Made by a program: the position numbers and the translations under genes. From Longimicrobiales bacterium (GTDB lineage: Bacteria > Gemmatimonadota > Gemmatimonadetes > Longimicrobiales > Gaopeijiaceae), in NCBI GenBank assembly GCA_965202985.1, contig CBDBCF010000001.1, forward strand, positions 1-64,000: a DNA stretch of 64,000 nucleotides, given 5' to 3'. This document shows positions 1 through 19,358 of the stretch, in pieces. The notes below the pieces were generated by a model. That model made no database searches, was not told the origin of the DNA, and saw only the letters and a program-made list of their open reading frames with translations. Within the stretch, counting starts at the first letter, position 1; every line of letters starts with the position of its first letter.

Positions 1-3000
1 ACGTCTGACCGCTCGCCGGAGCGCTCGACACCGTCACCGCAGTCACTGCCGGCACCGTGAACGTACTGCCGGACACCTGGTGGCCGCCGCTGTTCGTCAC
101 CACCACGCCCGTGCCCAGCCCCAACGTCGCGTCCAGCGTCCCGCCAGCCAGACGGATCGTACCGCCGCTCAACGTCAACGCGCCCGACCCGATGCTCAAT
201 CCGTCCGCGTCCGCGTCGCCCGACGCCACCACGTACCGGAACACCAGCCCCGTCGTCCCCGTCCCGCTCGCGTAGCTCGCCTGCCTGGTCGCCGAACCGA
301 TCGTCAGTGCGAGCCGCGGCGTGCCCGTCACGTCCACCGCGCGGTTGAACTCCAGTTCGACCTCGATCGTCTCGCCACGCTCGAACACGTCGCCAACCAC
401 GGGAGAACCGATCGCCAGTCCCGTCACGCCCGGCGGTCCCAGGCTCCCGTTCACCTTGTGCGCCGCAGCGTTCGTTATCGCGTGCGTGCCCAGCCCCAAC
501 GTCGCCGCCGTCGTGCCGCCCGAAAGCACGATCGCACCGCCGTTCAGCGTCAGCGCGCTCGCGCCGACGCTGATCCCCGTCGAATCCGCGTCCACAGCCG
601 CCACCACGTAGCGGAACGTCAGAGTTCTCGTACCTCCCCGCTCGCGTACGACGCCTGACGCGTCAGCGTGTCGATCGACAACGCCAGCTGCGGCGCCCCC
701 GTCACGTCCACCGAACGCTCGAACTCGACCTCGACCTCGATCGCCTCCGTGCGTCCGTACGTGCTGTCGCTCGCCGGCGCGCTCGATATCGCCACGCCCG
801 CCACGCCCGGCGCCACCTCCTTGCTCCCGTCCACCTGGTACGCCACCGCGTCCGCGAAGTTCCACGGAACCAGCGACAGCCGAGCGTCCGTCGTCGTCCC
901 CGTCGCTCGAATCGTCGCGCCGCCCGGCAACGTCAGCGCGCTCGCCCCGATGCTGATCCCCGTCGAGTCCGCGTCCGCAGCAACCACCGTGTAGCAGAAC
1001 ACCAGGATGACGCCGCCCCCTGTCGTGCCGCACTGCGCAGCGCTCCGCGTCTGCGCGCCGATCCCCAACGCCAGCCGCGGCGTGCCCGTCGCCGTCACGC
1101 CCGCGTTGAACCCGACCCCCACCCGAATCTGGTCGCCCAGTCCGAACACGCTGTCCGTGCTCGCGTACGACAGCCCCGCGTTCGTCGCCGACAGGAAGAA
1201 CGCGCTCGTCACGTACGGCACGGCGCCCGCAACCTTGTGCCCCGAAGCGCTCGCGATCGCGTGGCTACCCAGACCCAGACCCGCCGCCGTCGATCCGTCC
1301 CGAGCGTCCACGATCGTGCCGCCGTTCAGCGCCAGCGCCCCCGACCCGATGCCGATCCCGTCCGCGTCCGCGTCCGACGCCGCCACCACGTACCGGAACT
1401 CCAACGTGCTCGTGCCGCTGCCGCTCGAGTAGCCCGCCTGTCGCGTCGAGTCGCCGATCGCCAGCGCCAGCTGCGGCGTCCCCGTCGCCGTCACCGGCCG
1501 CACGAACGACACCTCCACCGCGATCGTGTCGCCCTGCACGTACGTGTCGCCTACCACCGGACTGCTCGTTATCGCCAGCCCGCTCGGCGACGACGCCGTG
1601 AGCGTCGCGCCCGACACCTTGTGGCCCGCGCTGTTCGTCACCGCGTGGCCGCCCAGCCCCAAGACCGCGTTCGTCGTCGTGCCCGTCCGCCGGACCGTCC
1701 CGCCGTTCAGCGCCAGCGCGCTCGCGCCCACGCTCAACCCGTCCGCGTCCGCGTCCGCCTGAACCACCGTGTAGCGGAACACCAGCGACGACGTGCCCGT
1801 CCCCGACGCGTAGCTCGCCTGCCGCGTCACCGCTCCGATCCCCAACGCCAGCTGCGGCGTGCCCGTCACCGTCACCGCCGCGTTGAACTCGACCGTCGCC
1901 GCCACCACGTCGCCTCGCTCGAAGGCGTCGCCCACGGGCGGCGACGCGACGACCAAGCCGCTCACGCTCGGCGCGCCGATGCCGCCGTTCACCTTGTGGT
2001 TCGCGTCGTTGCTGAACGCGTCGCCGGAGGTGGTCAGAAACACAGCCGACCCGCCCACCCGAGCGTCGTTGATCGTGCCGCCGTTCAGCGTCAACGCGCT
2101 CCCGCCGACGCTCAACCCGTCCGCGTCCACGTCCGCTGCCTGCACCGCATAGACGAACACCAGATCCCTCGTGCCCGTACCCGAAGCGTACTCCGCCTGC
2201 CGCGTCTGCGAACCGATCCCCAGCGCAAACTGCGGCGCGCCCGTCACGTCCACCGCCCGCGCGAACCCCACCGTCACCTCGATCCGCTCTCCAAGCTGGT
2301 ACGTCTGACTGCTCGCCGGCGTGCTCTGGACATGGAAGCCCGTCACGTGCGGCGTCGTGAAACTCGAGCCGTCCACCCGGTGGCCACTGTTGTTCGCGAC
2401 CGCGTGCGAACCCAGCCCCAGAAGCGCGTCCACCGTCGCGCCCGACAGCCGGATCGCGCCGCCGTTCAGCGTCAGCGCGCTCGCTGCGATGCTGATCCCG
2501 TCCGTGTCGCTGTCCGACTGCACCACCGTGTAGCGGAACAGGAGCGTCGTCGTGCCCGTCCCGCTCACGTAGCTCGCCTGACGCGTCGCGCTCCCGATCC
2601 CCAGCGCCAGCTGCGGCGTCCCCGTCACGTCCACCGCCCGATGAAACTGGACGCGGACCTCGATCCGCTCGCCCCGCTCGTACTCCGTGTTGTACGGATC
2701 GTTCCCGAGCGACACGCCGCTGACGGTCGGCGGTCCCAAGCTGCCGTCCACCTTGTGCGCCGCAGCGTTCGCTATCGCGTGGCTGCCCAGCCCCAGGCCC
2801 GCCGCCGTCGAACCGTCGCGAGCGTCGTTGATCGTTCCGCTGTTCAGCGTCAGGCGCGCTCGCACCGACGCTGATACCCGTCGAGTCCGCGTCCGCCGCC
2901 ACCACCGTGTAGTGGAACGCCAGCGTGTTCGTGCCGCTCCCGCTCGCGTACGACGCCTGCCGCGTCAGCGTGTCGATCCCCAAAGCCAGCTGCGGCGTGC

Positions 3001-6000
3001 CCGTCACGTCCACCGGGCGCGTGAACGACACCTCGACCTCGATCACCTCCGTACGTCCGTACGTGCTGTCGCTCGACGGTGCGCTCGCGATCGCCACGCC
3101 GCTCGGCGCCGACGCCGTGAACGTCCCGCCCGCAACCTTGTGGCCCGTGCTGTTCGCGACCGCGTGCGCGCCCAAACCCAGCAACGCGTCCGTCGTCCCG
3201 CCCGACACACGGACCGTACCGCCGTTCAGCGCCAAAGCGCCCGACCCGATGCTCAATCCGTCCGCGTCCACGTCCGCCGTCACCACCACGTACCGGAACA
3301 CCAGCGTGTCCGTGCCCGTGCCCGCGGCGTAGTCCGCCTGCTTCGTCGCGCTCCCGGATCCCCAAAGCCAGCCGCGGCGTGCCCGTCACGTCCACCGACT
3401 TGTTGAACACGACCTTGACCTCGATCGTCTCGCCGCGCTCGAACGTGTCGCCCACCTCCGGCGAGCCGATCGCCAACCCCGCAACGCCCGGCGGCCCCAG
3501 GCTGCCGTCCACCTTGTGCGCCGAAGCGTTCGCGACCACGTGGACCCGCAAGCCCAGGTAGGCGTTCACCGTCGCCGACCCCGCCCGCCTGACCGTCCCG
3601 CCGTTCAGCGCCAGCGCGCCCGCGCCGATGCTGATCCCGTCGCTGTCCGCGTCCCCAGCCGCCACCACGTAACGGAACACCAGCGAATCGCCGCCCGTCC
3701 CCGACACGTAGCTCGCCTGCTTCGTCGCCGACCCGATCCCCAAAGCCAGCTGCGGCGTCCCCGTCACGTCCACGTTCTCGTTGAACACCAGCCCGACCTC
3801 GACGGTGTCGCCCAGCGCATACGTGTCGTCGCCCCCAGCGTCGCTCGCAATCGCCGTGCCCGTCGCGTGAGGCACCGCCTGAGCGCCGTTCACCTTGTGC
3901 GCCGAAGCGTTCGCGATCGGCGTGAACTCCAAGAAGGCGTTCGCCGCGCCCGCCGGCGCTCCGGCCGTCCTGACGTAGTCGCTGCCGCCAAGCGCGACGC
4001 TGTCCACGCTGAGCCCGTCCGCGTCCAGGTCGGCCAGCGTCGGAACGTACCGCCAGTGCAAAGTCCGGGTGCCAGTGTTCACGTTGTGTATGTAGCCCGC
4101 GCGGACATCCTCCCCGATCGTGAGGTATATGGCCGACGACGCCGTGACCGACGCCGCTATGCCCCGATCGAACACCGTGAAGAAGTCGATGATCTCGCCG
4201 CTCGCCCACGTCTGGTCGGCGCCCGCGCCGGTGGGAATCGAAACGCTGCTCACTTTCGGCACTTCCCACACGCGGTGGGACCTGTCGTCCGTCGCGACGT
4301 GAGTCCACAAGCTCAGGTACGCGTCCGTCGCCGTGCCCGCCCTTCTGATCGTGCCGCCGTTCAGCGTCAGCGCGTCCCGCCCGTAGCTGATCCCGTTCGT
4401 GTCCGAGTCTCCCGACGCCACGACGTAGTTGAACCTCAGCGTGGCGGTGCCCGTCCCCGACACGTAGCTCGCCTGCACCACCGCGCTCAGCACCAGCGCC
4501 AGCTGCGGCGTACCCGTCACGTCCACCGCCTGGTTGAACACGACTTCCACCGCGACCGTGTCCCCTTCCACGTAGATGCTGTCGGTGCCCGCGTCGCTCG
4601 CGAACGACGTGCCCGTCACGATCGTCGCGCCCGAGCCCAGTACCTTGTGGGCCGCCGCGTTCGCCACAACGAAGTTCGCCGTCGACAGCGCAGCGTCCAC
4701 CGTCGCGTCCCCCGCCCGCTTGATCGTACCCCCGTTCAGAGCCAAAGCGCTCGCCCCGATGCTCAACCCGTCCGAGTCCGCGTCGCCGCTCGCCACCACG
4801 TACCGGAACGTCAGCGAATCCGTCCCCGTGCCGCCCGCGTAGCTCGCCCGACGCGTCCGCAGACCGATCCCCAGCGCCAGACGCGGCGTACCCCCCACGT
4901 CCACGCTCTCGTTGAACACCACCGCCACTTCTATCGTGTCGTTCGCCGCATACGTGCTGTCCGTGCCCGCATCGCTCGCGATCGGCATCCCCACCACGGC
5001 CGGCGGCCCCGCCGCGCCGTCCACCTTGTGCGCGCCGGCGGCGGCGACCGTGTGGACCCGCAAGCCCAGGTAAGCGTCCACCAAGGCGCCAGTCCGCCGA
5101 ATCGTCCCGCCGTTCAACGTCAACGCGCTCGAACCGATGCTGATCCCGTCCGCGTCCACGTCCCCAGGCCCAACCACGTAGCGGAACGCCAGCGAATCGC
5201 CGCCCGTCCCCGAAGCGTAGACCGCTTGCCGCGTCGCCGTCCCGACCGTCATCGCCAACCGCGGCGAGCCCCCCACGTCCACGTTCTCGTTGAACCCGAC
5301 GCCGATCTCGATCACGTCGCCACGCGCATACGTGCTGTCGCTCCCCGCATCGCTCGCAATCGACGTGCTCGTCACGTGAGGCACGTTCCTAGCGCCGTTC
5401 ACCTTGTGAGTGGCCGTATCAGCAAGAGTCACGGCTGAAAGATCGTTGTCCGCCTCGACCAACGTCCCCTCGAGCGTGACGCTGCCGATGTTCGTCAACG
5501 CGTTCTCCGGCAAGCTTATGCCGTTCTCGTCCAAGTCGGCGTTCGTCACCGTGTATCGAAACCATACCGCCCAAGGGTTCTGCTGGTACGGCATCGCCGT
5601 CACCGTGTCCGCGCCGATCTCGATCGCCAGCCTCATACCCTGCCACGTCGGCTTGTCCACGCGGGTGTTCCACGTGATGCGCAGCTCGATGTTCTCACCC
5701 GCCGCGAACGTCTGGTCGCTCGCCGGGTTCGTCTGGAAATGTATCGGGGCCATCGCCGGCCTGCGCGCAACTTGGTGGTCCCTGTCGTTGCTGATCGCGT
5801 GGGCCCCCAAACCCAGCGTCGCGTTCACCGTGCCCGACCCCGCCCTTCTGATCGTCCCGCCGTTCAGCGTCAGCGCGCTCGCCCCGATGCTCAACCCGTC
5901 CGCGTCCCTGTCCGTCGACGACCCCGGCAGCACGTAGTGGAACGCCAACGAATCGTTCCCCGTGCCCGACACGTAGCTCGCCTGTCGCGTCAGCGTGTCG

Positions 6001-6962
6001 ATCCCCAGCGCCAGCTGCGGCGCCCCCGTCACGTCCACCGACTCGCTGAACACTACCAACACCTTGATCGTGTCGCCCTGCACATACGTGCTGTCGCTCC
6101 CCGCAGAACTCGCGATGCCCACGCCGATCACCACCACTCCGCCGTCCACCTTGTGCGCCGCAGCGTTCGCGATCGCATGGCTGGCCAAGCTGCCCAGGAA
6201 CGCGTCCTTCGTGCCGAGCCTGATCGTCCCGCCGTTCAGCGTCAACGCCCCCGCGCCGATGCTGATCCCGTCCGCGTCCCTGTCCCCCCCAACCACCACG
6301 TACCGGAACACCAGCGACGCCGAACCCGTCCCGCTCGCGTAGCTCGCCTGCCTAGTCGCGCTCCCGATCCCCAAAGCCAACTGCGGCGTGCCCGTCACCG
6401 CCACAGTCGAGTCGAACGCCACCGTCACCGCTATCGTGTCGCCAGCAGCGTACGTGCTGTCCGAACCCGCGCTGCTGCTGATCGTCACCCCCGTCACCTT
6501 CGGATACCCAAACGCGCCGTCCACCTTGTGCGCCGCAGCATTCGTGATCGTATTGCCGCTCAAGCTGTGGTTGATCGGGTTGGCCGAGGTGCTGTCAAAG
6601 ATGTGCTGTTCCAACGCGTTCGCGCCGACGCTGATCCCGTCCGCGTCCCAGTCCGCCAGCTGCACAATGTACTTATGCTCTAGCCAATCAAGCCCTGCGG
6701 GCTCGTTGGTTACCCACCTCGCCGTCCCCGTCGCCGACCCGATGTTCAGGGTAAGGTTCGAAAAACCAGAGGCTGCGTCTATGTCACCGCTAAACCATAT
6801 CCGCAGCTTGATCGTGTCGCCCTGCACGTACGTGCTGTCCGTCCCCGCAGAACTGACGATCCTCAGACTGTCCACGCCCACGCTTTGGGCGCTCAGCGGC
6901 GCCGTGGTCCCGAGCGCCGCCAGCAGGCCGAACGCCGCGAGCGCGGTTCTCGCTACCGGCAT
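1..6962 (-). CDS. Giant secreted repetitive surface protein/adhesin with at least 18 tandem ~120-aa Ig-like repeats; 3' end runs off the window; three 1-nt frameshifts (~3356, ~2853, ~634)
   Basis: Signal peptide MPVARTALAAFGLLAALGTTAPLSAQ is followed by repeats of the consensus S..GxDSTY..GDTIxVxVxF..VxVTGTPQLALGIG..TRQASYxSGxGT.xLxFRYxV..xDxDxDGISIG..ALxLNGGTI...HKVxG. The repeat continues across ORFs 2850..6962, 1265..3301 and 619..2865 and to position 1. Confidence 0.85.
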
Positions 6963-7022
6963 CAGTACAGACCGAAACCTGGCGTCCGATCCAGGCTTGC
7001 TGAAAGAAAGTCGCTTTGGGGA

Positions 7023-10963: not shown

Positions 10964-12082
10964 CTAGCCTTCGGCCGCGACCGACTCCAACAGGTCCTCG
11001 AAGGCGAGCGCAGCCCGGTCCCAGGTGTACGCCTCGGCCATGGCTCGGGCGGCGCGGCCGAGCCGGTCGCGGACGGCCGGGTCCAGAAGTCGGGCCAGCG
11101 CGTCGGCCAGCGCCTCCACGTCTCCGTGGGGCACGAGAAGGCCGGTCTCGCCGTGGCGAACGGTCTCGCGCAGTCCGGGCGCGTCCGACGCGACGGTGGC
11201 GGTGCCGCACGCCGACGCCTCGACGCTTGCGATTCCCCAGCCCTCCTTGGGCGAGACGAAGGCATGGACCCACGAGCGCGACAGCAGCTCGCGCTTTTGC
11301 TCGTCGGACACGAAGCCGGCGAAGCGGACTTGGGCGTCGATGCCCAGCCGGCGGGCCGTCCGCTCCAGCCCTTCGCGAGCGTCTCCCTTGCCGGCGATCG
11401 CGACGTTCACGGTCGTGCCCCGGTCCCGGAGGACGGCCGCGGCGTGCAAGACCAGGTCGATCCCCTTGTAGCGCTTGAGGCGACCCAGGCAAACGACCGT
11501 GGGTACCGGGAACCGCTCCTGCGCGGGCCACAGGCGGTCCAACACGACGCCGTTCCGGATCACGGCGGTGCGCGAGGCCGCCAGACCGCGGCGGGTCAAG
11601 TCGTCCAGGGTGCTCTGGGAGACGGCCGCGCACGGCAGGCCCCGGTAGACCGACGGAATCGGGCGCTCCAGCAGCCAGGTGGCGGCGGCCAGAACCCAGT
11701 TGGCCTCGCGGAAGGCGGTGGCGCCGAAGAGGTGGTGGACCAGCAGGAGACGGGCGCGGGCGCGGACCCAAAGCGGGGCCAGCATGGGGACCTTGTTCAG
11801 GTCCTCGACCACTACGTCGAAGGGCTCGTCCGCCAAGCGGCGCTCGTAGTAGAGGGGGGCGGCCGCGCCGAAGGTGTACCGGCGCCCGGCCCGATGCACG
11901 CGGATGCCGTCCACCTCGGCGCGCCGAGGTGCGCCGCGCCATCCCGAGCAGAGCAGCGTGACTTGGTGACCTCGGGCGGCCAGTCGTCCGAAGACTTGAT
12001 GGAGCTGCTCCTCGGCGCCGCCGGCCAACGGGTTCCGGCGGTCCTGCCAGTTGACGACGAGCAGGCGCAGGCGAGCGCTCAC
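10964..12082 (-). CDS. Glycosyltransferase family 4
   Basis: LLVVNWQD..NP.AGGAE, GRLKRYKG and KEGWGIASVEASACG (E-x7-E) motifs; GTG at 12082 overlaps the upstream TGA. Confidence 0.9.
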   Translation of the reverse strand: MSARLRLLVVNWQDRRNPLAGGAEEQLHQVFGRLAARGHQVTLLCSGWRGAPRRAEVDGIRVHRAGRRYTFGAAAPLYYERRLADEPFDVVVEDLNKVPMLAPLWVRARARLLLVHHLFGATAFREANWVLAAATWLLERPIPSVYRGLPCAAVSQSTLDDLTRRGLAASRTAVIRNGVVLDRLWPAQERFPVPTVVCLGRLKRYKGIDLVLHAAAVLRDRGTTVNVAIAGKGDAREGLERTARRLGIDAQVRFAGFVSDEQKRELLSRSWVHAFVSPKEGWGIASVEASACGTATVASDAPGLRETVRHGETGLLVPHGDVEALADALARLLDPAVRDRLGRAARAMAEAYTWDRAALAFEDLLESVAAEG

Positions 12083-13092
12083 CGCGTGCGTTCGCTGCGC
12101 AGGACGCCGGCCAGAACGCCATTGACGAAGCGGGCGGACTCGTTGCCGCCGTACTGGTCCGCCAGCCGGACCGATTCCTGCAGGACGACCTTGCCCGGCA
12201 CGTCGGGGACGCAGACGATCTCGGTCGTGCCCAGCCGAAGGACGCCCCGGTCCATGAGCGACAGGCGGTCCATGCGCCAGTTGTCCAAGGCCGCCGTCAC
12301 GACTTCGTCGATCCGGGCGTGGTTCGCGCCGAACTCCTGCACCAGGCGTTCCAAGTAGGGCACTCTGCGAGGGGCGACGCGCCGGCGGGCCAACGTCGCG
12401 GACAGGGCTTGGTCCGGGCTGAGCGCCCCGCGCTCCGCCTCCCATCGGTAGTGAACGTGCAGGAACCACGCCCGCGACCGGCTTCGATCCCGCTTCTCCC
12501 GCGAAGGCTTGGCGTCGGCGGGGGCTTGGCGGGCTTGGGGCGGAGCCTGCGGTCCGGCAACCGACGGCGGGTCGGGGGCGCCGTCGGGCCGCACCAGGAC
12601 CTTCCATCGCCGGCGAGCCGTGTCGGATGGGCCGGAGAGCGACCGGAAGAGGGCCGCCATGTCCAGGGCCGCCTGGGCGAACTCGGCGCCCTTGTCGGCG
12701 TCGCCGCGGCCGACACGCGCCATGGCCTGCTCGGCGTCGTCGGTGGCCAGCACGCCGAAGACCACGGGGATCGGAGCGGCCAGGGCGACCTGTCCCAGGC
12801 CTTCGTTGGCCTGGGCCGCCACCAGCTCGAAGTGGGTCGTCTCGCCTCGGATGACGCACCCGATCGCCACCAGCGCGTCGTGCTTGCCCGAGTTCGCGAT
12901 CCGCTGCGCGGCCTGGGGAAGCTCCCAAGCCCCCGGCACCCGGTAGACGGAGATACGGCCAGCGGACACGCCTTGGGCCAGCAGGTGTTCGCGCGCGCCC
13001 TGCAGCAGCTGCTCGGTGATCATGCTGTTGAAGCGGGCAGCGAGCAGGGCGACCCGGAGTCGGCGCGGGGCGGTCGGCTCGGGCGGCGTCAT
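12079..13092 (-). CDS. ribH-nusB: Fused 6,7-dimethyl-8-ribityllumazine synthase (RibH) and transcription antitermination factor NusB
   Basis: N-terminal RibH motifs (ARFN, VPGAWELP, GCVIRGETTHF, PVVFGVL), a Pro/Ala linker, then NusB motifs (NWRMDRLSLMDRGVLRLG, ESVRLADQYG..ESARFVNGVL) in one frame. Confidence 0.85.
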   Translation of the reverse strand: MTPPEPTAPRRLRVALLAARFNSMITEQLLQGAREHLLAQGVSAGRISVYRVPGAWELPQAAQRIANSGKHDALVAIGCVIRGETTHFELVAAQANEGLGQVALAAPIPVVFGVLATDDAEQAMARVGRGDADKGAEFAQAALDMAALFRSLSGPSDTARRRWKVLVRPDGAPDPPSVAGPQAPPQARQAPADAKPSREKRDRSRSRAWFLHVHYRWEAERGALSPDQALSATLARRRVAPRRVPYLERLVQEFGANHARIDEVVTAALDNWRMDRLSLMDRGVLRLGTTEIVCVPDVPGKVVLQESVRLADQYGGNESARFVNGVLAGVLRSERTR

Positions 13093-14255
13093 GGGCGGGT
13101 CGCGGGGGCCGAGGGCAAGGCGACGGGGGAAGGGTCGTCGGCTTCGGCGGGCAGCGGCTCTCGACCTACGACCTCCAGGGCGTACCCGTCCAGCCCCACG
13201 ATGTGTCTCTTGCTGTTGGTGAGGAGCCTGACGGAAGCGAGCCCCAAGTCCAGCAGGATTTGAGCGCCGATCCCGTAGTCCCGCAACGCCTGTCGGGGAG
13301 CGACGGGAGCGGAGGATTCGCCGGCGGCGCCCCGAAGGCGATCGACCAGCCGTTCGCCCGCCCGGTCTCGGTGCAGGTAGACGACCACGCCCTCGCCTTC
13401 CTCGTGGATGCGTCGCATGGCCGCCGCCAGCAGCCCGCCCCCCGGCTCGTCCAGGCACGAGAACACGTCGCCCAAGGGGTTCGCGGCGTGCATCCGGACA
13501 AGAACGCCGGGCTTGCCCTCGACCGCGCCCTTGACCAGCGCCACGTGGACGCGGTCGTCGATCTCGCTCCGGTAGGCCGCGGCCTGGAAGTCGCCCCAGG
13601 CGGTGCGCAACGGCGCCTCTACCACCCTGCGCACCAGGCGCTCCCGCGCAAGGCGGTAGGCCACCAGCTGCTCGACCGTAATGAACTTGAGGCCGTGGTC
13701 GCGGGCCATGACCTCCAACTGGGCCCGGCGGGCCATGGTGCCGTCCCGGTTGAGGATCTCGCAGATGACGCCCGCGGGCGCGAGTCCGGCCAAGCGCGCC
13801 AAGTCCACCGCGGCTTCGGTCTGGCCCACGCGGCGCAGCACGCCTCCCCGGCGGGCGCGAAGGGGAAAGACGTGACCGGGGCGCCTCAGGTCGCTCGGGA
13901 CCGAGGCGGGGTCCACGAGCACTTCGATCGTCTTGGCCCGGTCGTGGGCGGAGATGCCCGTGGTCACGCCGAAGCGCCGGTGCGCGTCCACCGACACGGT
14001 GAAGGCTGTGCCCTGCGGGTCCGTGTTGCGGTCGGTCATGGGGGGCAGGTCCAGGGCGTCGGCGCGCTCCGGGTCCAGTGCGGCGCAGATGAGCCCGCGC
14101 CCGTGCCGAGTCATGAAGTTGACCAGCTCCGGCGTGATCTTCTCCGCCGCGCACACCAGGTCGCCCTCGTCCTCGCGGTCCTCGTCGTCGGCGACGATCA
14201 CCAGCTTGCCCGCGGCGACGTGGCGGACGGCGTCGGGAACGGTGTCAAGGGGCAT
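13089..14255 (-). CDS. ribB: 3,4-dihydroxy-2-butanone-4-phosphate synthase with a degenerate GTP cyclohydrolase II-like domain (RibBX type)
   Basis: DDEDREDEGD, AFTVSVDA, RRPGHVFPL and ICEILN.DG motifs. The C-terminal domain keeps RDYGIGAQIL/LLTN but lacks the Zn-binding Cys motif. Confidence 0.9.
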   Translation of the reverse strand: MPLDTVPDAVRHVAAGKLVIVADDEDREDEGDLVCAAEKITPELVNFMTRHGRGLICAALDPERADALDLPPMTDRNTDPQGTAFTVSVDAHRRFGVTTGISAHDRAKTIEVLVDPASVPSDLRRPGHVFPLRARRGGVLRRVGQTEAAVDLARLAGLAPAGVICEILNRDGTMARRAQLEVMARDHGLKFITVEQLVAYRLARERLVRRVVEAPLRTAWGDFQAAAYRSEIDDRVHVALVKGAVEGKPGVLVRMHAANPLGDVFSCLDEPGGGLLAAAMRRIHEEGEGVVVYLHRDRAGERLVDRLRGAAGESSAPVAPRQALRDYGIGAQILLDLGLASVRLLTNSKRHIVGLDGYALEVVGREPLPAEADDPSPVALPSAPATRP

Positions 14256-14895
14256 GGCCGGCGTCGGAGGCGGGTTGACGGAGGGCGGGCGGAAGCGGCC
14301 TCGACTCGAGGAACCTGCGAACGTACTTGCCCACCAAGTCCGCTTCCACGTTGACGGGCGTACCCGGCTCCAGGGCGGCGAAGTTGGTGTGCTCCCACGT
14401 ATGGGGCACCACGGCGACTTGGCAAACGCCGCCGTCCCCGTCGTCCCGCAGGTCGTTGACGGTCATGCTCACGCCGTTGAGAGCCACGGAGCCGTAGAGG
14501 ACGCTGCCGGCGTGAACGTCTTCGGGCAAGCGGAAGTCCAGGAGGCGGGTTGCGCCCTTGCGACGGCGTCCCAGGTAGGCGCCGACGCCGTCCACGTGCC
14601 CTTGGACCCAGTGGCCGTCCAGGCGGTCCCCGGCCCGGAGGCCGCGCTCCAGGTTGACGCGGGTGCCGACCTGGTAGCCGCCGGCGATGGTGCGCGCCAA
14701 GGTTGCGGCGCCGGCTTCCACGGCGAACGCGGATTCGCCGCAGGAACGGACGGTGAGGCAGGCGCCGTCCAGCGCCACCGACTGGCCGGCGACCATATCC
14801 CCCGCAAAGGGCGCCTCGACGAGGAGCGTTCGGGCCGCTTCACCCTCCCGCACCTCGGCGATCTTGCCGACCGCCTCGACGATCCCGGTGAACAC
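14245..14895 (-). CDS. ribE: Riboflavin synthase (alpha chain)
   Basis: MFTGIVE N-terminus; GACLTV, VNLER, GHWVQGHVDG and VNVEAD motifs. Confidence 0.95.
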   Translation of the reverse strand: MFTGIVEAVGKIAEVREGEAARTLLVEAPFAGDMVAGQSVALDGACLTVRSCGESAFAVEAGAATLARTIAGGYQVGTRVNLERGLRAGDRLDGHWVQGHVDGVGAYLGRRRKGATRLLDFRLPEDVHAGSVLYGSVALNGVSMTVNDLRDDGDGGVCQVAVVPHTWEHTNFAALEPGTPVNVEADLVGKYVRRFLESRPLPPALRQPASDAGHAP

Positions 14896-14896
14896 G

Positions 14897-16165
14897 TCAG
14901 CCTCGGGCGGCCGCGGCGGGGCCTGGGTCAGGCCGCTGCGAGCGCGGTCGGCGCTGGGGACGCGCCGGGGTTGCGGATCGGTCGCGGTCGAGCACGGTCA
15001 GCGTGTCGTTGCCGAAGCGGGTCGGCGGGGCGGCTAGCCTCCAGCCGCTGTGTTGCGTGGACGTCGGCTGGCCGGACAAAGGGGAGTTCGCGGGCAGGGG
15101 GGCGTTTGCGGCCGGAGGGGCGTTCGCGGTGAAAGGGGCGGCGGCGGCGAAGGGAAACGCGGGCGTGGCGTCGGGGCCCAGGAAGACGGGAGCGACGAAG
15201 TGGTAGAGGCGGTCCACCAAGTCGCCGGCGAGCAGGGAGGCCGCCACGCGCCCGCCACCTTCGCACAAGACGCTTGTCGCCCCGCGCCGTGCCAGGTCGC
15301 GAAGGAGGGCGTGCAGGTCCAGGCCGGGGCGGCCCTCCTTGGCAGGGGGAACGGCGGCGACTTCCGCGCGTCCCTTCAAGCGGTTGCGGAGGCGATGCGC
15401 ACGGTCGGGCGACGTGGCCACCAACGACGGTGCGCCGCAGTCCGGGTCCAGGGCGCGGGCCCGTTCCCCGATCCGGCCTTTCCGGTCCAGCAGCACGCGC
15501 AACGGGGGGATTCGGGGCGTCACCGGCCCGCGCGCCGTCAGCGACGGGTCGTCGGCCTGCCAAGTTCCCCGGCCCACCAGGACGGCGTCGAACCCGGCGC
15601 GAAGGCGGTGCACTTCGGTGCGGGCCTCGGGGCCGGTGAGCCACGTCCGGCGTCCTCCGGGAGGCGCGATGCCCCCGTCCAGACTCGCCGCCAGCTTGAG
15701 GGCAACGAAAGGTCGAGAAGGGCCAGCGGCGGCGTGGAAGAACGACGGGTTCTCGGCGGCCCACTCGCGCGGTTCGCCGAAGGGGCCGTCCACGCGCACG
15801 CCGGCCCGTTGGAGCCACTCGCCGCCGCCGCGGGCCAGCGGGCTCGGATCGGCGGCCCAGTACACCACGCGTGCCACGCCCGAGTCGCGCACGGCGGTCG
15901 TGCACGGGGGAGTCTTTCCAGAGTGGCGGCAGGGCTCCAGGCTACAGTACAGGGTGGCGCCTCGGGCGGCGTCGCCCAGTCCGGCCAAGGCGGCGGCCTC
16001 GGCGTGGGGGCCGCCGAACTCCTGGTGGTGAGCCTCGGCCAGCACCGTCCCGTCACGCGCCACGACCGCGCCCACCATGGGGTTGGGGTGAACGCGGCCC
16101 CACCCCCGGCGGCCCGCCCGGACCGCCTGGGCCAGCAAGCGCCGGTCGGCGTCTCCCAGTGTCAA
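14897..16165 (-). CDS. ribD: Bifunctional riboflavin deaminase/reductase
   Basis: PNPMVGAVV, HAE, LEPC.H.GKTPPC, LKLAASLDG and CEGG motifs; probable TTG start at 16165. Confidence 0.93.
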   Translation of the reverse strand: MTLGDADRRLLAQAVRAGRRGWGRVHPNPMVGAVVARDGTVLAEAHHQEFGGPHAEAAALAGLGDAARGATLYCSLEPCRHSGKTPPCTTAVRDSGVARVVYWAADPSPLARGGGEWLQRAGVRVDGPFGEPREWAAENPSFFHAAAGPSRPFVALKLAASLDGGIAPPGGRRTWLTGPEARTEVHRLRAGFDAVLVGRGTWQADDPSLTARGPVTPRIPPLRVLLDRKGRIGERARALDPDCGAPSLVATSPDRAHRLRNRLKGRAEVAAVPPAKEGRPGLDLHALLRDLARRGATSVLCEGGGRVAASLLAGDLVDRLYHFVAPVFLGPDATPAFPFAAAAPFTANAPPAANAPLPANSPLSGQPTSTQHSGWRLAAPPTRFGNDTLTVLDRDRSATPARPQRRPRSQRPDPGPAAAARG

Positions 16166-17265
16166 AGGGTCACGCGGAGCGCCGCCGCCGCGAACCAAGT
16201 GCGGCCGGCGGGGTCGAAGGCGCCGACCCGGTCCGGAAAGGGGTCCGCGGCGCCCTGGGCGATGCCCGCCTCCAGCGACAGTTGGGAGATCAGGAAGCTG
16301 TACCAGGCGGCGGCGAAGAGCAGGGTGCGGCCCGCGCGCACCCGTCCCTCGGCGGCGGCGGGCTCGCGTCCTCCCTGAGCGGCGGAGATGCGCGCGTCGC
16401 CCTCGTACCGATCCCAGCCGGCCCCCGCCATGACGCCCACCACGAACCAGTTCTTGCCCAGGGTCGCTCGGAACGAGGTCACGGCCAGCTCCGCCTCCAG
16501 CTCGCCGGCGTCCCCCTCGGAAACGGAGCCCGCGCGCACGGCGCCGTGCCAGCGGCGGACGGCAGACACGGAGAGGCCGGGCAGCGTGAACGACTCGCGC
16601 ACCAAGCCGAGACGGGCGCCGGCGCCGAAGCCGTGCGACGAGCCCCGGAAGCCCTGGCCGGCGGGCAGGCGAACGAAGGAGTAGGAGCCGACCAGGTCCA
16701 CGGAGAGCACGCCTCCCAGGTTGGGCATGAGCTGGAAGCCGTCCCACACGCCGGCCGCGGCGCCGACCCGCAGCCCCAGTAGCGAGGCCGTTTCCTGCGA
16801 CTGCAGCTCGCTCGTCGACGCGCCGCCCAGCCCGGGCATCTGCATCCGAGTCCCCGCGGCCGACAACGAGAGACCCAGCCGAGGCATGCGTCCCATCCGT
16901 CGGCCCAGGGTGCTGGGCGAACCGGGGATGTCGCTCCCCGCCGCGGACGCCAAGCCCACGCCGCGCTGCACCACCATGGCGCCGAGGGCCAGCTCGTTGC
17001 ACGCGGGCAGCAGCCCCGGGCGCCCCGTCGCGCACCGCGCGGCCAACTCCGTCACGCCGCGGACCGAGCTCTCGGGCACCGCCTGGGCGGCCAGGGGCGG
17101 CGCGGCCAACGCGATCGCAAGCGGCAGCCAAGCCGCCGACGGCAACCGAGCCGCCAACGGCGAGTCGGCCGGCAACCGCAACTCGGCGGTCGCGAGCACA
17201 TCCACCTGCGCCGGCGAGGCCTTCCCCGCGCGAGCCGTCTCGAGCGTCGCCAGCCTCCCGGTCAT
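16162..17265 (-). CDS. Hypothetical exported protein, probably an outer-membrane beta-barrel
   Basis: Signal-like segment WLPLAIALAAPPLAAQ, amphipathic beta-strands and C-terminus ...ALRVTL; overlaps both neighbours by ATGA/TTGA. Start uncertain. Confidence 0.6.
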   Translation of the reverse strand: MTGRLATLETARAGKASPAQVDVLATAELRLPADSPLAARLPSAAWLPLAIALAAPPLAAQAVPESSVRGVTELAARCATGRPGLLPACNELALGAMVVQRGVGLASAAGSDIPGSPSTLGRRMGRMPRLGLSLSAAGTRMQMPGLGGASTSELQSQETASLLGLRVGAAAGVWDGFQLMPNLGGVLSVDLVGSYSFVRLPAGQGFRGSSHGFGAGARLGLVRESFTLPGLSVSAVRRWHGAVRAGSVSEGDAGELEAELAVTSFRATLGKNWFVVGVMAGAGWDRYEGDARISAAQGGREPAAAEGRVRAGRTLLFAAAWYSFLISQLSLEAGIAQGAADPFPDRVGAFDPAGRTWFAAAALRVTL

Positions 17266-19358
17266 GCGACCCCCTCCAACTCGCCGATCCCCACCAAATC
17301 GACCGAATCGCCGGCCACCACTTCGCCCAGCGCCCAGGCGCCCTCCGGCAGCGCATCCAGCACGGCCTCCACGTCGCCCCGCCCCACGACCAAGATCATC
17401 CCCACCCCCATGTTGAAGACCCGGTACATCTCGTTCGCCTCCACGCTTCCCGCGCGAGCCAGCACGCGGAACACGTTCGGGACCGTCCACGACCGGCAGT
17501 CGATCCGGGCGCCCAGCCCCGGCGGCAGCACGCGCGGAAGATTGCCGGCGATTCCGCCGCCCGTCACGTGGGCCAGCGCCTTGAGCCGAGCGGGCTCGTC
17601 GTCGATCAGCCGGCCCACCGGATCCAGGTACGACCGGTGGACCCGCAGGAGGACATCGGCCACCGACGCGCCGTCCTCGCCGGGAAAGGCGTCGCCCACG
17701 TCCAGACGCATGCGCTCGAACACGATGGCTCGCGCCAGGGTGAATCCGTTGGTGTGCAGGCCGGACGAAGGCAACGCGATCAGCCGGTCGCCGGGGGCCG
17801 GGCCGGGCGAGGTCGATCCGGAACGGGCCAGGGCTTGGTCGGGGGCCACCGGGGCCGCGCCGGGATCGTTCGCCGCCGCAACGGCGCCGTCCGCGCCGGC
17901 GTTCCCCAGCAGCCTGCCCCGCTCCACCACGCCGACGACGAAGCCGGCCAAGTCGTATTCGCCCGCCCCGTAGAAGTCGGGCATCTGGGCCGTCTCGCCG
18001 CCCAGCAGCACACATCGGTTTTCTCGGCACGCACGCGCAACGCCCGCCACCACCTGGGCCACCACCCCCTCCTCCATGTCGCCCGTGGCCAAGTAGTCCA
18101 GGAAGAAGAGCGGGCGCGCGCCCTGCACCAAGACGTCGTTCACGCAGTGGTTGACCAGGTCCTGGCCCACGGTGTCGTGGCGGCCCGCGGCGAACGCCAC
18201 CTTGAGCTTGGTGCCCACGCCGTCGGCGCTCGCCACCAGGACCGGTTCGTCCAGCCCCGCCGGGAGCGCGTAGGCGCCCCCGAACGCGCCCATGGCGGAC
18301 AGCGTGTTGGCGTCGCGGGTGTCGGACAGAAGCCGTCCCAACGCGGACTTGGCCCGATCGGCGGCGTCCAGGTCCACCCCGGCGGCGTCGTAGGTGAGCG
18401 GCGGGTTCAACGACGCCGCCCGCGCTTCCACTTCGTCGCCGTCCAGTCCTCGAAAGCGGTCCACCGAGAACGCCTCCACCGCGCAGGACCCCATGACCGC
18501 GCCGTAGGCCATGGCCTGCTTCCAGTCGTCCCGCCGCCAAGACTGGTCCGGCGCCGGGTTCTGCGGTGCACCCGGCGACGCTTGCTCCTGCCTCGGGGGG
18601 GCGTGCCGCCGGCGAAGTTCCCGGTCCAGGTGTCCCAGGAAGCCGCCGGCGAAGGCGTCGCCCGCTCCCGTGGGGTCCACGACCGCGCTTGCAGGATGCG
18701 CGGGACACGAGAACGTCCAGCCGTCGGCGAACAGCACGGCGCCGCGCGCGCCCCGCTTCACCACGACCAAGGCGGGACCTCGATCCCGAATCCAGGCGGC
18801 GGCTCGGGACAGGTCGGCTTCGCCTGCCAACTGCCGGGCCTCTTCGTCGTTCACGAGCAGCACGTCCAGACGAGCCGCCAGCGCGAGCACGGCGTCGCGG
18901 GAGCGTTCGATCCAGTAGTTCATGGTGTCGGCGGCGACCAAGCGGGGCGACGCGATCTGGTCCAGAACGCCAAGTTGCAGGACGGGATCGATGTTGCCCA
19001 GGAAGACGACCTCCGAGTCCCGGTAGGCGTCCGGAACCACGGGGTCGAAGGCGCCGAAGACGCCCAAGCGGGTCTCCAGCGTCTCGCGCCGGGCAAAGTC
19101 GTCCGAGTATCGGCCCGCCCAGAAGAAGCTGGAGCCCTCCGCCCGTTCCAGCCCCTCGAAGTTCACGCCGGCCTCTTCCAGGAAGCGTAGCTGGTCCAGG
19201 GGATAGTCGTCCCCCACGACCGCGACGACCCGAACGTCCGTGAAGAACGAGGCGGACGCGCCGAAGAAGACCGCGGAGCCGCCGATGACGCCGTCCACGC
19301 GCGCCTGGGGGGTCTCCACGGCGTCCAGCGCCACGCTTCCCACGACCAGCAGCGACAC
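17262..19358 (-). CDS. purM: Fused PfkB-family carbohydrate/nucleoside kinase and phosphoribosylformylglycinamidine cyclo-ligase (PurM)
   Basis: N-terminal PfkB (GSVALD, DTMNYWI, VDPTGAGDAFAGG); C-terminal PurM (TYDAAGVD, DGVGTK, GGETAQMP, SSGLHTNG, AHVTGGG, VFNMGVG). Confidence 0.88.
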   Translation of the reverse strand: MSLLVVGSVALDAVETPQARVDGVIGGSAVFFGASASFFTDVRVVAVVGDDYPLDQLRFLEEAGVNFEGLERAEGSSFFWAGRYSDDFARRETLETRLGVFGAFDPVVPDAYRDSEVVFLGNIDPVLQLGVLDQIASPRLVAADTMNYWIERSRDAVLALAARLDVLLVNDEEARQLAGEADLSRAAAWIRDRGPALVVVKRGARGAVLFADGWTFSCPAHPASAVVDPTGAGDAFAGGFLGHLDRELRRRHAPPRQEQASPGAPQNPAPDQSWRRDDWKQAMAYGAVMGSCAVEAFSVDRFRGLDGDEVEARAASLNPPLTYDAAGVDLDAADRAKSALGRLLSDTRDANTLSAMGAFGGAYALPAGLDEPVLVASADGVGTKLKVAFAAGRHDTVGQDLVNHCVNDVLVQGARPLFFLDYLATGDMEEGVVAQVVAGVARACRENRCVLLGGETAQMPDFYGAGEYDLAGFVVGVVERGRLLGNAGADGAVAAANDPGAAPVAPDQALARSGSTSPGPAPGDRLIALPSSGLHTNGFTLARAIVFERMRLDVGDAFPGEDGASVADVLLRVHRSYLDPVGRLIDDEPARLKALAHVTGGGIAGNLPRVLPPGLGARIDCRSWTVPNVFRVLARAGSVEANEMYRVFNMGVGMILVVGRGDVEAVLDALPEGAWALGEVVAGDSVDLVGIGELEGVA

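Follow-up and report, generated by a model that had tools for sequence, protein, structure and literature searches.

To our knowledge, no functional reason is known for the widespread adjacency of ribH, which encodes lumazine synthase, and nusB, which encodes an antitermination factor. Lumazine-synthase C-termini face outwards and tolerate fusions (passages of PMC7369331), contacts between Aquifex pentamers involve E5, R21, D36, R40, H41, L121, I125 and E145 (excerpted text of PMC4737204), and L121A alone still yields cages in Aquifex (part of PMC13376624). According to sections of 10.1101/2020.12.23.423990, the engineered nucleocapsids NC-1 to NC-4 (PDB 7A4F-7A4J) combine the Aquifex enzyme with the lambda N peptide in circularly permuted cages, into which BoxB-tagged RNA is packaged.

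Here we describe a natural RibH-NusB fusion from a Longimicrobiales bacterium (Gemmatimonadota), encoded in a stretch of 64,000 nucleotides (contig CBDBCF010000001.1, positions 1 to 64,000; hereafter the window). Compared with the lumazine synthases of Bacillus subtilis (1RVV) and Aquifex aeolicus (1HQK), it shares the fold, the active-site residues and the place in the rib operon, but differs in its C-terminal NusB, its short proline-rich N-terminus and its changed R40, H41 and L121 contacts. Relative to the NusB family, the full domain, the arginine-rich N-terminus, the F122-N124-G125 equivalents and the position after ribH are all retained, whereas the N-terminus is tethered, helix 7 carries alanine for aspartate, and five copies per ring are predicted. 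Like NC-1 to NC-4, the fusion joins lumazine synthase to an RNA-binding antitermination module; unlike them it has the native chain order, a NusB predicted to face outwards and read boxA, and a doubtful cage. An RNA-packaging lumazine-synthase nucleocapsid was considered and rejected, given the outward C-terminus, the native order and the changed cage contacts. Other RibH-NusB fusions in databases have the same domain order on one chain, but are of separate origins with unlike linkers, and many are single records, some of them error-like. The architecture is thus already in databases and apparently undescribed in papers: no description was found in the literature, including passages of PMC5312566, PMC6362234, PMC4572677, PMC10012899 and PMC4921024, although a riboflavin table in Additional file 1 of the last may list one.

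The fused gene (Table 1) reads through 337 codons with no internal stop. Its start lies in an ATGA overlap with the ribBA stop (13089-13092), which supports that start, and its own stop overlaps the GTG of the next gene (12079-12082). The N-terminal half scored 151.3 bits against TIGR00114 (cut-off 84.6, aa 12-148) and 161.2 against PF00885 (cut-off 26.7), and stayed below the cut-off of the narrower RibH model NF000814 (106.7 vs. 174), while the C-terminal half scored 102.1 bits against TIGR01951 (cut-off 88.35, aa 203-332), lacked a methyltransferase domain and stayed below the cut-offs of the narrower PRK00202 models. Pfam concurred with both domain assignments (PF01029 for NusB). Translation and curated family scores thus confirm the single ORF with RibH and a full NusB proposed in the initial annotation, and the structure prediction suggested there (AlphaFold; mean pLDDT 88.4, pTM 0.52) gave two confident domains and a linker that the model does not resolve. 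The fusion is the sole ribH and the sole nusB found in the source genome (92% complete), in which a second NusB-like match corresponds to RsmB, a separate gene.

Table 1. Features of the ribH-nusB locus (window coordinates).
Feature	Position	Strand	Basis or remark
ribH-nusB fused gene, 337 aa	12079..13092	-	ORF; family models; a single ORF in all 28 sequences and in the X3, X6 and X7 contigs
Lumazine synthase (RibH) domain, aa 12-149	12646..13059	-	Pfam; residue alignment; model overlay on 1RVV
Conserved first half of linker, aa 153-170, 75% mean identity	12583..12636	-	Alignment; predicted low-confidence helix 157-166
Codon 163 (TGG, Trp), putative former ribH stop	12604..12606	-	W, R or L across clade
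GGAAGG (12605-12600) and in-frame GTG (12594-12592, Val167), which may be a nusB start, relic or live	12592..12605	-	
Variable Pro/Ala-rich tether, aa 171-196, 37% identity, length-variable, pLDDT <50	12505..12582	-	
NusB domain, aa 206-332, Arg-rich start from ~aa 197	12097..12477	-	TIGR/Pfam models; residue alignment
ribBA, upstream of fusion	13089..14255	-	ORF and Pfam
ribE (riboflavin synthase)	14245..14895	-	ORF and Pfam
Open frame with ribD, Pfam matches aa 404-734, true start not fixed	14897..17356	-	
PfkB-family kinase and PurM fusion, 698 aa, same gene run	17262..19358	-	

The RibH-NusB fusion is real and no assembly error. A protein search returned 7 clusters (at 90%) of full-length fused proteins, with 76-97% identity and 28 sequences in total (from ENA, Logan, JGI and NCBI); 5 of the 9 records that hold them are labelled sponge metagenome. 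The whole ORF was spanned in three of the four runs compared, by contigs of X3, X6 (study P2) and X7 (study P3), with no spanning piece in the fourth (X8). This comparison is one of contigs rather than raw reads, and X3, which is near-identical, may be the source; X3, X6 and X7 differ from the window by 2, 7 and 27 letters, respectively, and the sole length change, in X6 and X7, is a 12-base in-frame insertion. No stop-making change stood among the differences listed, which bears, for two studies, on the concern raised at the outset that reads over the linker might reveal a stop codon. Of the 24 differences listed between X7 and the window, the domains hold 14 synonymous and 3 replacing changes and the tether 2 and 4. 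Mean identity among seven members is 86% for RibH and 88% for NusB, so that, judging from these alignments, both domains look conserved and under selection while the tether drifts.

Outside this clade, the relatives examined almost all keep two separate genes. Among relatives (59 of 60 matched), all 29 non-self loci returned have separate ribH and nusB; of 160 further loci, 117 hold both genes, each time separate, and 43 have no nusB in the piece examined; and 41 more loci, a few of which repeat earlier genomes, comprise 39 separate pairs, the window itself and one fusion. Three genus mates are all unfused, with a ribH TGA, two bases, and then a nusB TTG start. In a tree of both domains the fused clade is sister to these genus mates with a bootstrap of 100, which indicates one gain, later fixed. 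Separate genes in all close relatives, together with detection of free NusB only, had been named as grounds for doubting the fusion; the gene pattern holds outside the clade, including the three genus mates, but within the clade the fusion is fixed.

The domain-architecture search also revealed something the initial annotation had not foreseen, namely RibH-NusB proteins in further lineages. Both domains were matched in 61 of 479 proteins examined: 28 of this clade, 7 of a second Gemmatimonadota lineage (near Palauibacteraceae, cluster of MCE2421747.1), a 4-member group from several sources, single records elsewhere, an error-like set partly out of frame and one spurious match. One origin shared by this clade and the second lineage (P0333) was rejected (AU p-value 4e-117, 30 rows), and the linkers of lineages with separate origins have no sequence in common. 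The ESM Atlas holds a 90-member RibH/NusB cluster, mostly Pseudomonadota, and JGI has two records named for both functions. The one fusion among the 41 loci (L229; G368:C4:425434-429360) is the phylum's third in-frame RibH-NusB join; it retains an ATG where NusB starts and has intact cage residues, and as a single record it may be an error. P0185, a candidate for the reversed NusB-RibH order, was rejected as a tandem RibH. Separately, many lumazine synthases of 280-330 aa carry an unannotated N-terminal domain of ~130 aa (P0235, P0262, P0308, P0026), and records related to this group are named Acidobacteriaceae.

Within the lumazine synthase half, the model overlays on 1RVV with an rmsd of 1.2 Å over 141 columns, and on the known structures 1RVV and 1HQK with 1.2-1.4 Å. 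Of the residues F22, H88, R127 and K135 (B. subtilis numbering), which we take to be those of the active site, the equivalents F21 (27/27 aligned), H87 and R126 (28/28 each) are invariant, and K134 is lysine in 26 and glutamine in 2 of 28. The B. subtilis K131 equivalent is absent in the clade and in the genus mates, and aspartate for Asn134 is common to the clade and its unfused relatives.

Among the contacts between pentamers, equivalents of R40, H41 and L121 are altered in 28/28 fused proteins and in 3/3 unfused genus mates, the I125 equivalent is M in 26 and S in 2 of 28, and the N-terminal strand region is changed in 28/28, with a short, proline-rich N-terminus; R21 is retained, and D36 and E145 mostly show conservative changes. 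On a four-residue cage score devised here, all 28 fused proteins score 0 and the genus mates 0, 0 and 1, while among 160 distant loci 53 score 4 and 15 score 0. Cage contacts were therefore lost before the fusion, being already altered in the unfused genus mates, and this prior loss may have eased it. The same residues, altered throughout the clade and in its genus mates, suggest that a five-armed pentameric ring is likelier than a 60-mer cage, although the cages formed by L121A in Aquifex and the hydrophobic Met at 125 leave the latter some probability. Of the suggestion that a lumazine-synthase scaffold displays NusB multivalently, the several outward copies are thus expected, in line with the outward C-termini described in passages of PMC7369331, but the 60-mer capsid finds no support. 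A complex prediction with four RibH and one NusB domain (score 0.01, mark 0.32) was too low to weigh either way.

On the NusB side, positions equivalent to F122 and D128 follow E. coli NusB numbering. F322-N324-G325 (in F-V-N-G, the F122-N124-G125 equivalents) and an RDRSRSR N-terminus are kept in 28/28, whereas the helix-7 D128 equivalent is Ala328 in 28/28 fused proteins and Asp in all 33 unfused loci of the family and order that aligned (7 did not). NMR places helix 7 within the boxA surface (passages of PMC3177189). A 12-mer resembling boxA occurs twice in the 3.86 Mb source genome (0.08 expected), once ~185 bases ahead of the 16S gene and once within an array of 17 tRNA genes. In four relatives the exact 12-mer was absent from such places, so the boxA call rests on position and on an assumed boxA consensus. 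Genes for S10 and NusA were found in the source genome; nusG and rplK, both present in 4/4 relatives, were not, and since rplK is absent along with nusG, this likely reflects an unassembled block.

The linker spans aa 153-196. The ~45-residue Pro/Ala linker initially annotated is thus present, as 44 residues with the Pro/Ala-richness confined to the second half, and the other two minus-strand frames are indeed also stop-free across it (ORFs 10964-12928 and 12297-12716). Across the fused clade its length ranges from 31 to 59 residues and RRR 160-162 is invariant. At residue 163, every option lies a single base away from TGG, which is in turn one change from TGA; V occupies residue 167 in 26/28 and M in 2/28; and conservation falls directly after residue 170, which together fits an ancestral ribH end at 163 and an in-frame nusB start at 167. 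Copying of the ribH 5' end, or insertion of DNA from another part of the genome, was rejected as the source of the linker, since only short GC-rich matches were found. Scans of contigs and genomes, including 313 family genomes, yielded no further DNA of the fused clade.

Upstream, the gene run continues through the riboflavin genes to a second fusion, pfkB-purM, five kilobases from ribH-nusB. These genes are separate in 3/3 genus mates and fused in 13 of 120 clusters among those listed, and mixed within one cluster (9 long and 3 short among 12 members), and in the second Gemmatimonadota lineage pfkB-purM is also fused, four accession numbers from its RibH-NusB. Fusion of this unrelated pair in the same two lineages points to junction read-through rather than shared function. 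Nevertheless, the genome is not broadly fusion-prone: a screen based on 20-kb regions of a genus mate, 20 of them evenly spaced, gave 11 candidates, of which 2 are the known fusions from deliberately chosen regions, 3 were set aside by position only, and 6 comprised one stop-less junction, three apparently split in the relative and two without family. The evenly spaced regions therefore account for a single stop-less junction. Fusions of ArgS with PurM were noted as well. At the L275 locus (C1:1869195-1875305, minus strand), an upstream coding region runs stop-free into a TonB-dependent receptor that keeps a signal-peptide-like start; G003 has two ORFs instead. An in-frame stop splits a Schlafen/AlbA-RecG-like gene (L281; C1:585435-587543) that is whole in G003.

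Given these observations, our favoured reading, which we hold with middling confidence, is a read-through fusion that is tolerated and fixed in the lineage, with two domains working independently on a tether in a fixed 1:1 ratio. A single ancestor of a sponge-associated Gemmatimonadota clade joined ribH to nusB, presumably when the ribH stop turned into a sense codon, now codon 163, with a nusB start in frame four codons past that stop and a Pro/Ala-rich N-terminal extension. The product would fold as two independent domains, the RibH part forming the usual pentamer, probably without a 60-mer cage, and making lumazine, while five NusB domains would hang outside the ring on tethers of ~30-60 residues, long enough to let one NusB partner S10/NusE while binding boxA of the 16S leader and of the tRNA array. 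There would be no regulatory crosstalk, the effect being the fixed enzyme:NusB ratio, and some free NusB from the relic GTG would be possible and not required. Such a fusion should arise easily, given its recurrence elsewhere with unlike linkers and the state of the neighbouring pfkB-purM junction, itself fused or mixed. Several points count against this reading: aa 153-170 are more conserved than a passive tether needs, the Asp128-to-Ala change, fixed in the clade, is left unexplained by it, a cage keeps some probability, the genome shows no broad tendency to fuse genes, and the exact boxA-like 12-mer was absent from rRNA leaders of four relatives.

A tentative but serious alternative is that one frame gives two products, with the internal GTG at 12594, or cleavage of the tether, releasing free NusB for antitermination and the full-length chain acting as an enzyme with NusB baggage. 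As free NusB is monomeric and partners S10, the small form would be favoured. The V or M at residue 167 fits a kept GTG or ATG codon, the drop in conservation lies just past residue 170, and the five-base spacing from GGAAGG to GTG gives a ribosome site (dG -6.7) stronger than those at the ribH and ribBA starts. The site proposed initially for free NusB is therefore present, but taken by itself it does not exceed chance: among 300 random coding windows of 45 codons, 33-47% contain a start codon whose ribosome site is equally good. Moreover, the residues spelling the site vary across the clade (W-K-V, W-Q-V, R-Q-V, R-Q-L, L-H-V), so GGAAGG cannot be conserved as such.

We consider it unlikely that the fusion is an adaptive coupling, in which five NusB on a ring would bind boxA avidly, or enzyme ligands would tune NusB and link flavin status to stable-RNA synthesis, with the arginine-rich linker segment and the Asp-to-Ala change extending the RNA-binding surface. 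The adjacency of ribH and nusB is widespread (passages of PMC5312566, PMC6362234 and PMC10012899; both genes in 117/160 loci), fusions recur independently (as the rejected single origin with P0333 and the 90-member Atlas cluster indicate), this one is fixed in all 7 clusters, with RRR 160-162 and A328 unchanged throughout, and a putative boxA has been noted upstream of ribH in six Pseudomonas species (part of 10.1101/091223). Against this, linkers of separate origins are unlike in sequence, the unrelated pfkB-purM is fused in the same two lineages, and fusion is rare (1/40 other non-self loci, 0/29 and 0/117). Nor do boxA-like sites in the window, including upstream of the operon, exceed expectation (7 vs. 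7.9 expected), on which ground boxA autoregulation upstream of this rib operon was rejected. The proposed link between flavin synthesis and rRNA antitermination thus finds no backing, with no crosstalk in anything tested and a linker length that varies from 31 to 59. It is tempting to speculate further on a natural five-armed antitermination hub, where a lumazine-synthase ring holding five NusB domains would gather separate 16S, 23S and tRNA-array transcripts via boxA and flavin-pathway ligands would tune stable-RNA synthesis; we rate this as slightly more doubtful again. If true, it would explain ribH-nusB adjacency across bacteria and repeated fusion, and would be the natural counterpart of engineered lumazine-synthase RNA binders.

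Decay of one domain is very improbable: A328 in 28/28 could mean that NusB lost boxA function, and Asn134 to Asp, or Lys135 to Gln (Q134) in two members, that the enzyme is impaired, but both domains keep 86-88% identity with mostly synonymous change, F322, N324, G325, F21, H87 and R126 are kept, Asp at 134 is common to unfused relatives, and the rest of the riboflavin pathway adjoins. Finally, an assembly or sequencing error that deleted the ribH stop is refuted to near certainty, for although such errors exist (several single RibH-NusB records of another group are partly out of frame), the 28 sequences in 7 clusters from several sources, the spanning contigs from two other studies and the in-frame linker length changes contradict it.

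With its only NusB found chained to an oligomeric enzyme, the clade is a natural test case. If tethered NusB works in five copies, it constrains models of the rRNA antitermination complex; if an internal start rescues free NusB, it is an example of two proteins from one frame; and if flavin ligands affected boxA binding, metabolism would feed into ribosome synthesis by a new route. Without coupling, it would be a clean neutral, recurrent fusion and a warning against inferring function from fusions.

Several minor observations concern the window and source genome. The window held no FMN riboswitch or other Rfam RNA, its promoter and terminator scan gave nothing above chance, and ARAGORN found no tmRNA in the source genome. 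The 16S and 23S-5S genes are unlinked (C2:377500-379060 and C1:~2843480-2846700), with no tRNA or 23S after the 16S, and in the 17-tRNA array (L282; C1:1863700-1865556) the boxA-like 12-mer, identical to that of the 16S leader, separates tRNA-Asp from tRNA-Ala. Positions 1-7000 of the window (minus strand) encode a large repetitive, probably secreted protein or proteins, with a signal-peptide-like start at 6962 and frames broken near 2850-3300, and similar long proteins occur in G001 and G003. Seven dispersed, operator-like elements of ~40 bases (C1:116633, 136647, 256570, 333903, 1290363 and 1566045; C2:904000) consist of a short direct repeat and, after it, an inverted repeat whose spacer measures 9-11 bases, in differing flanks.
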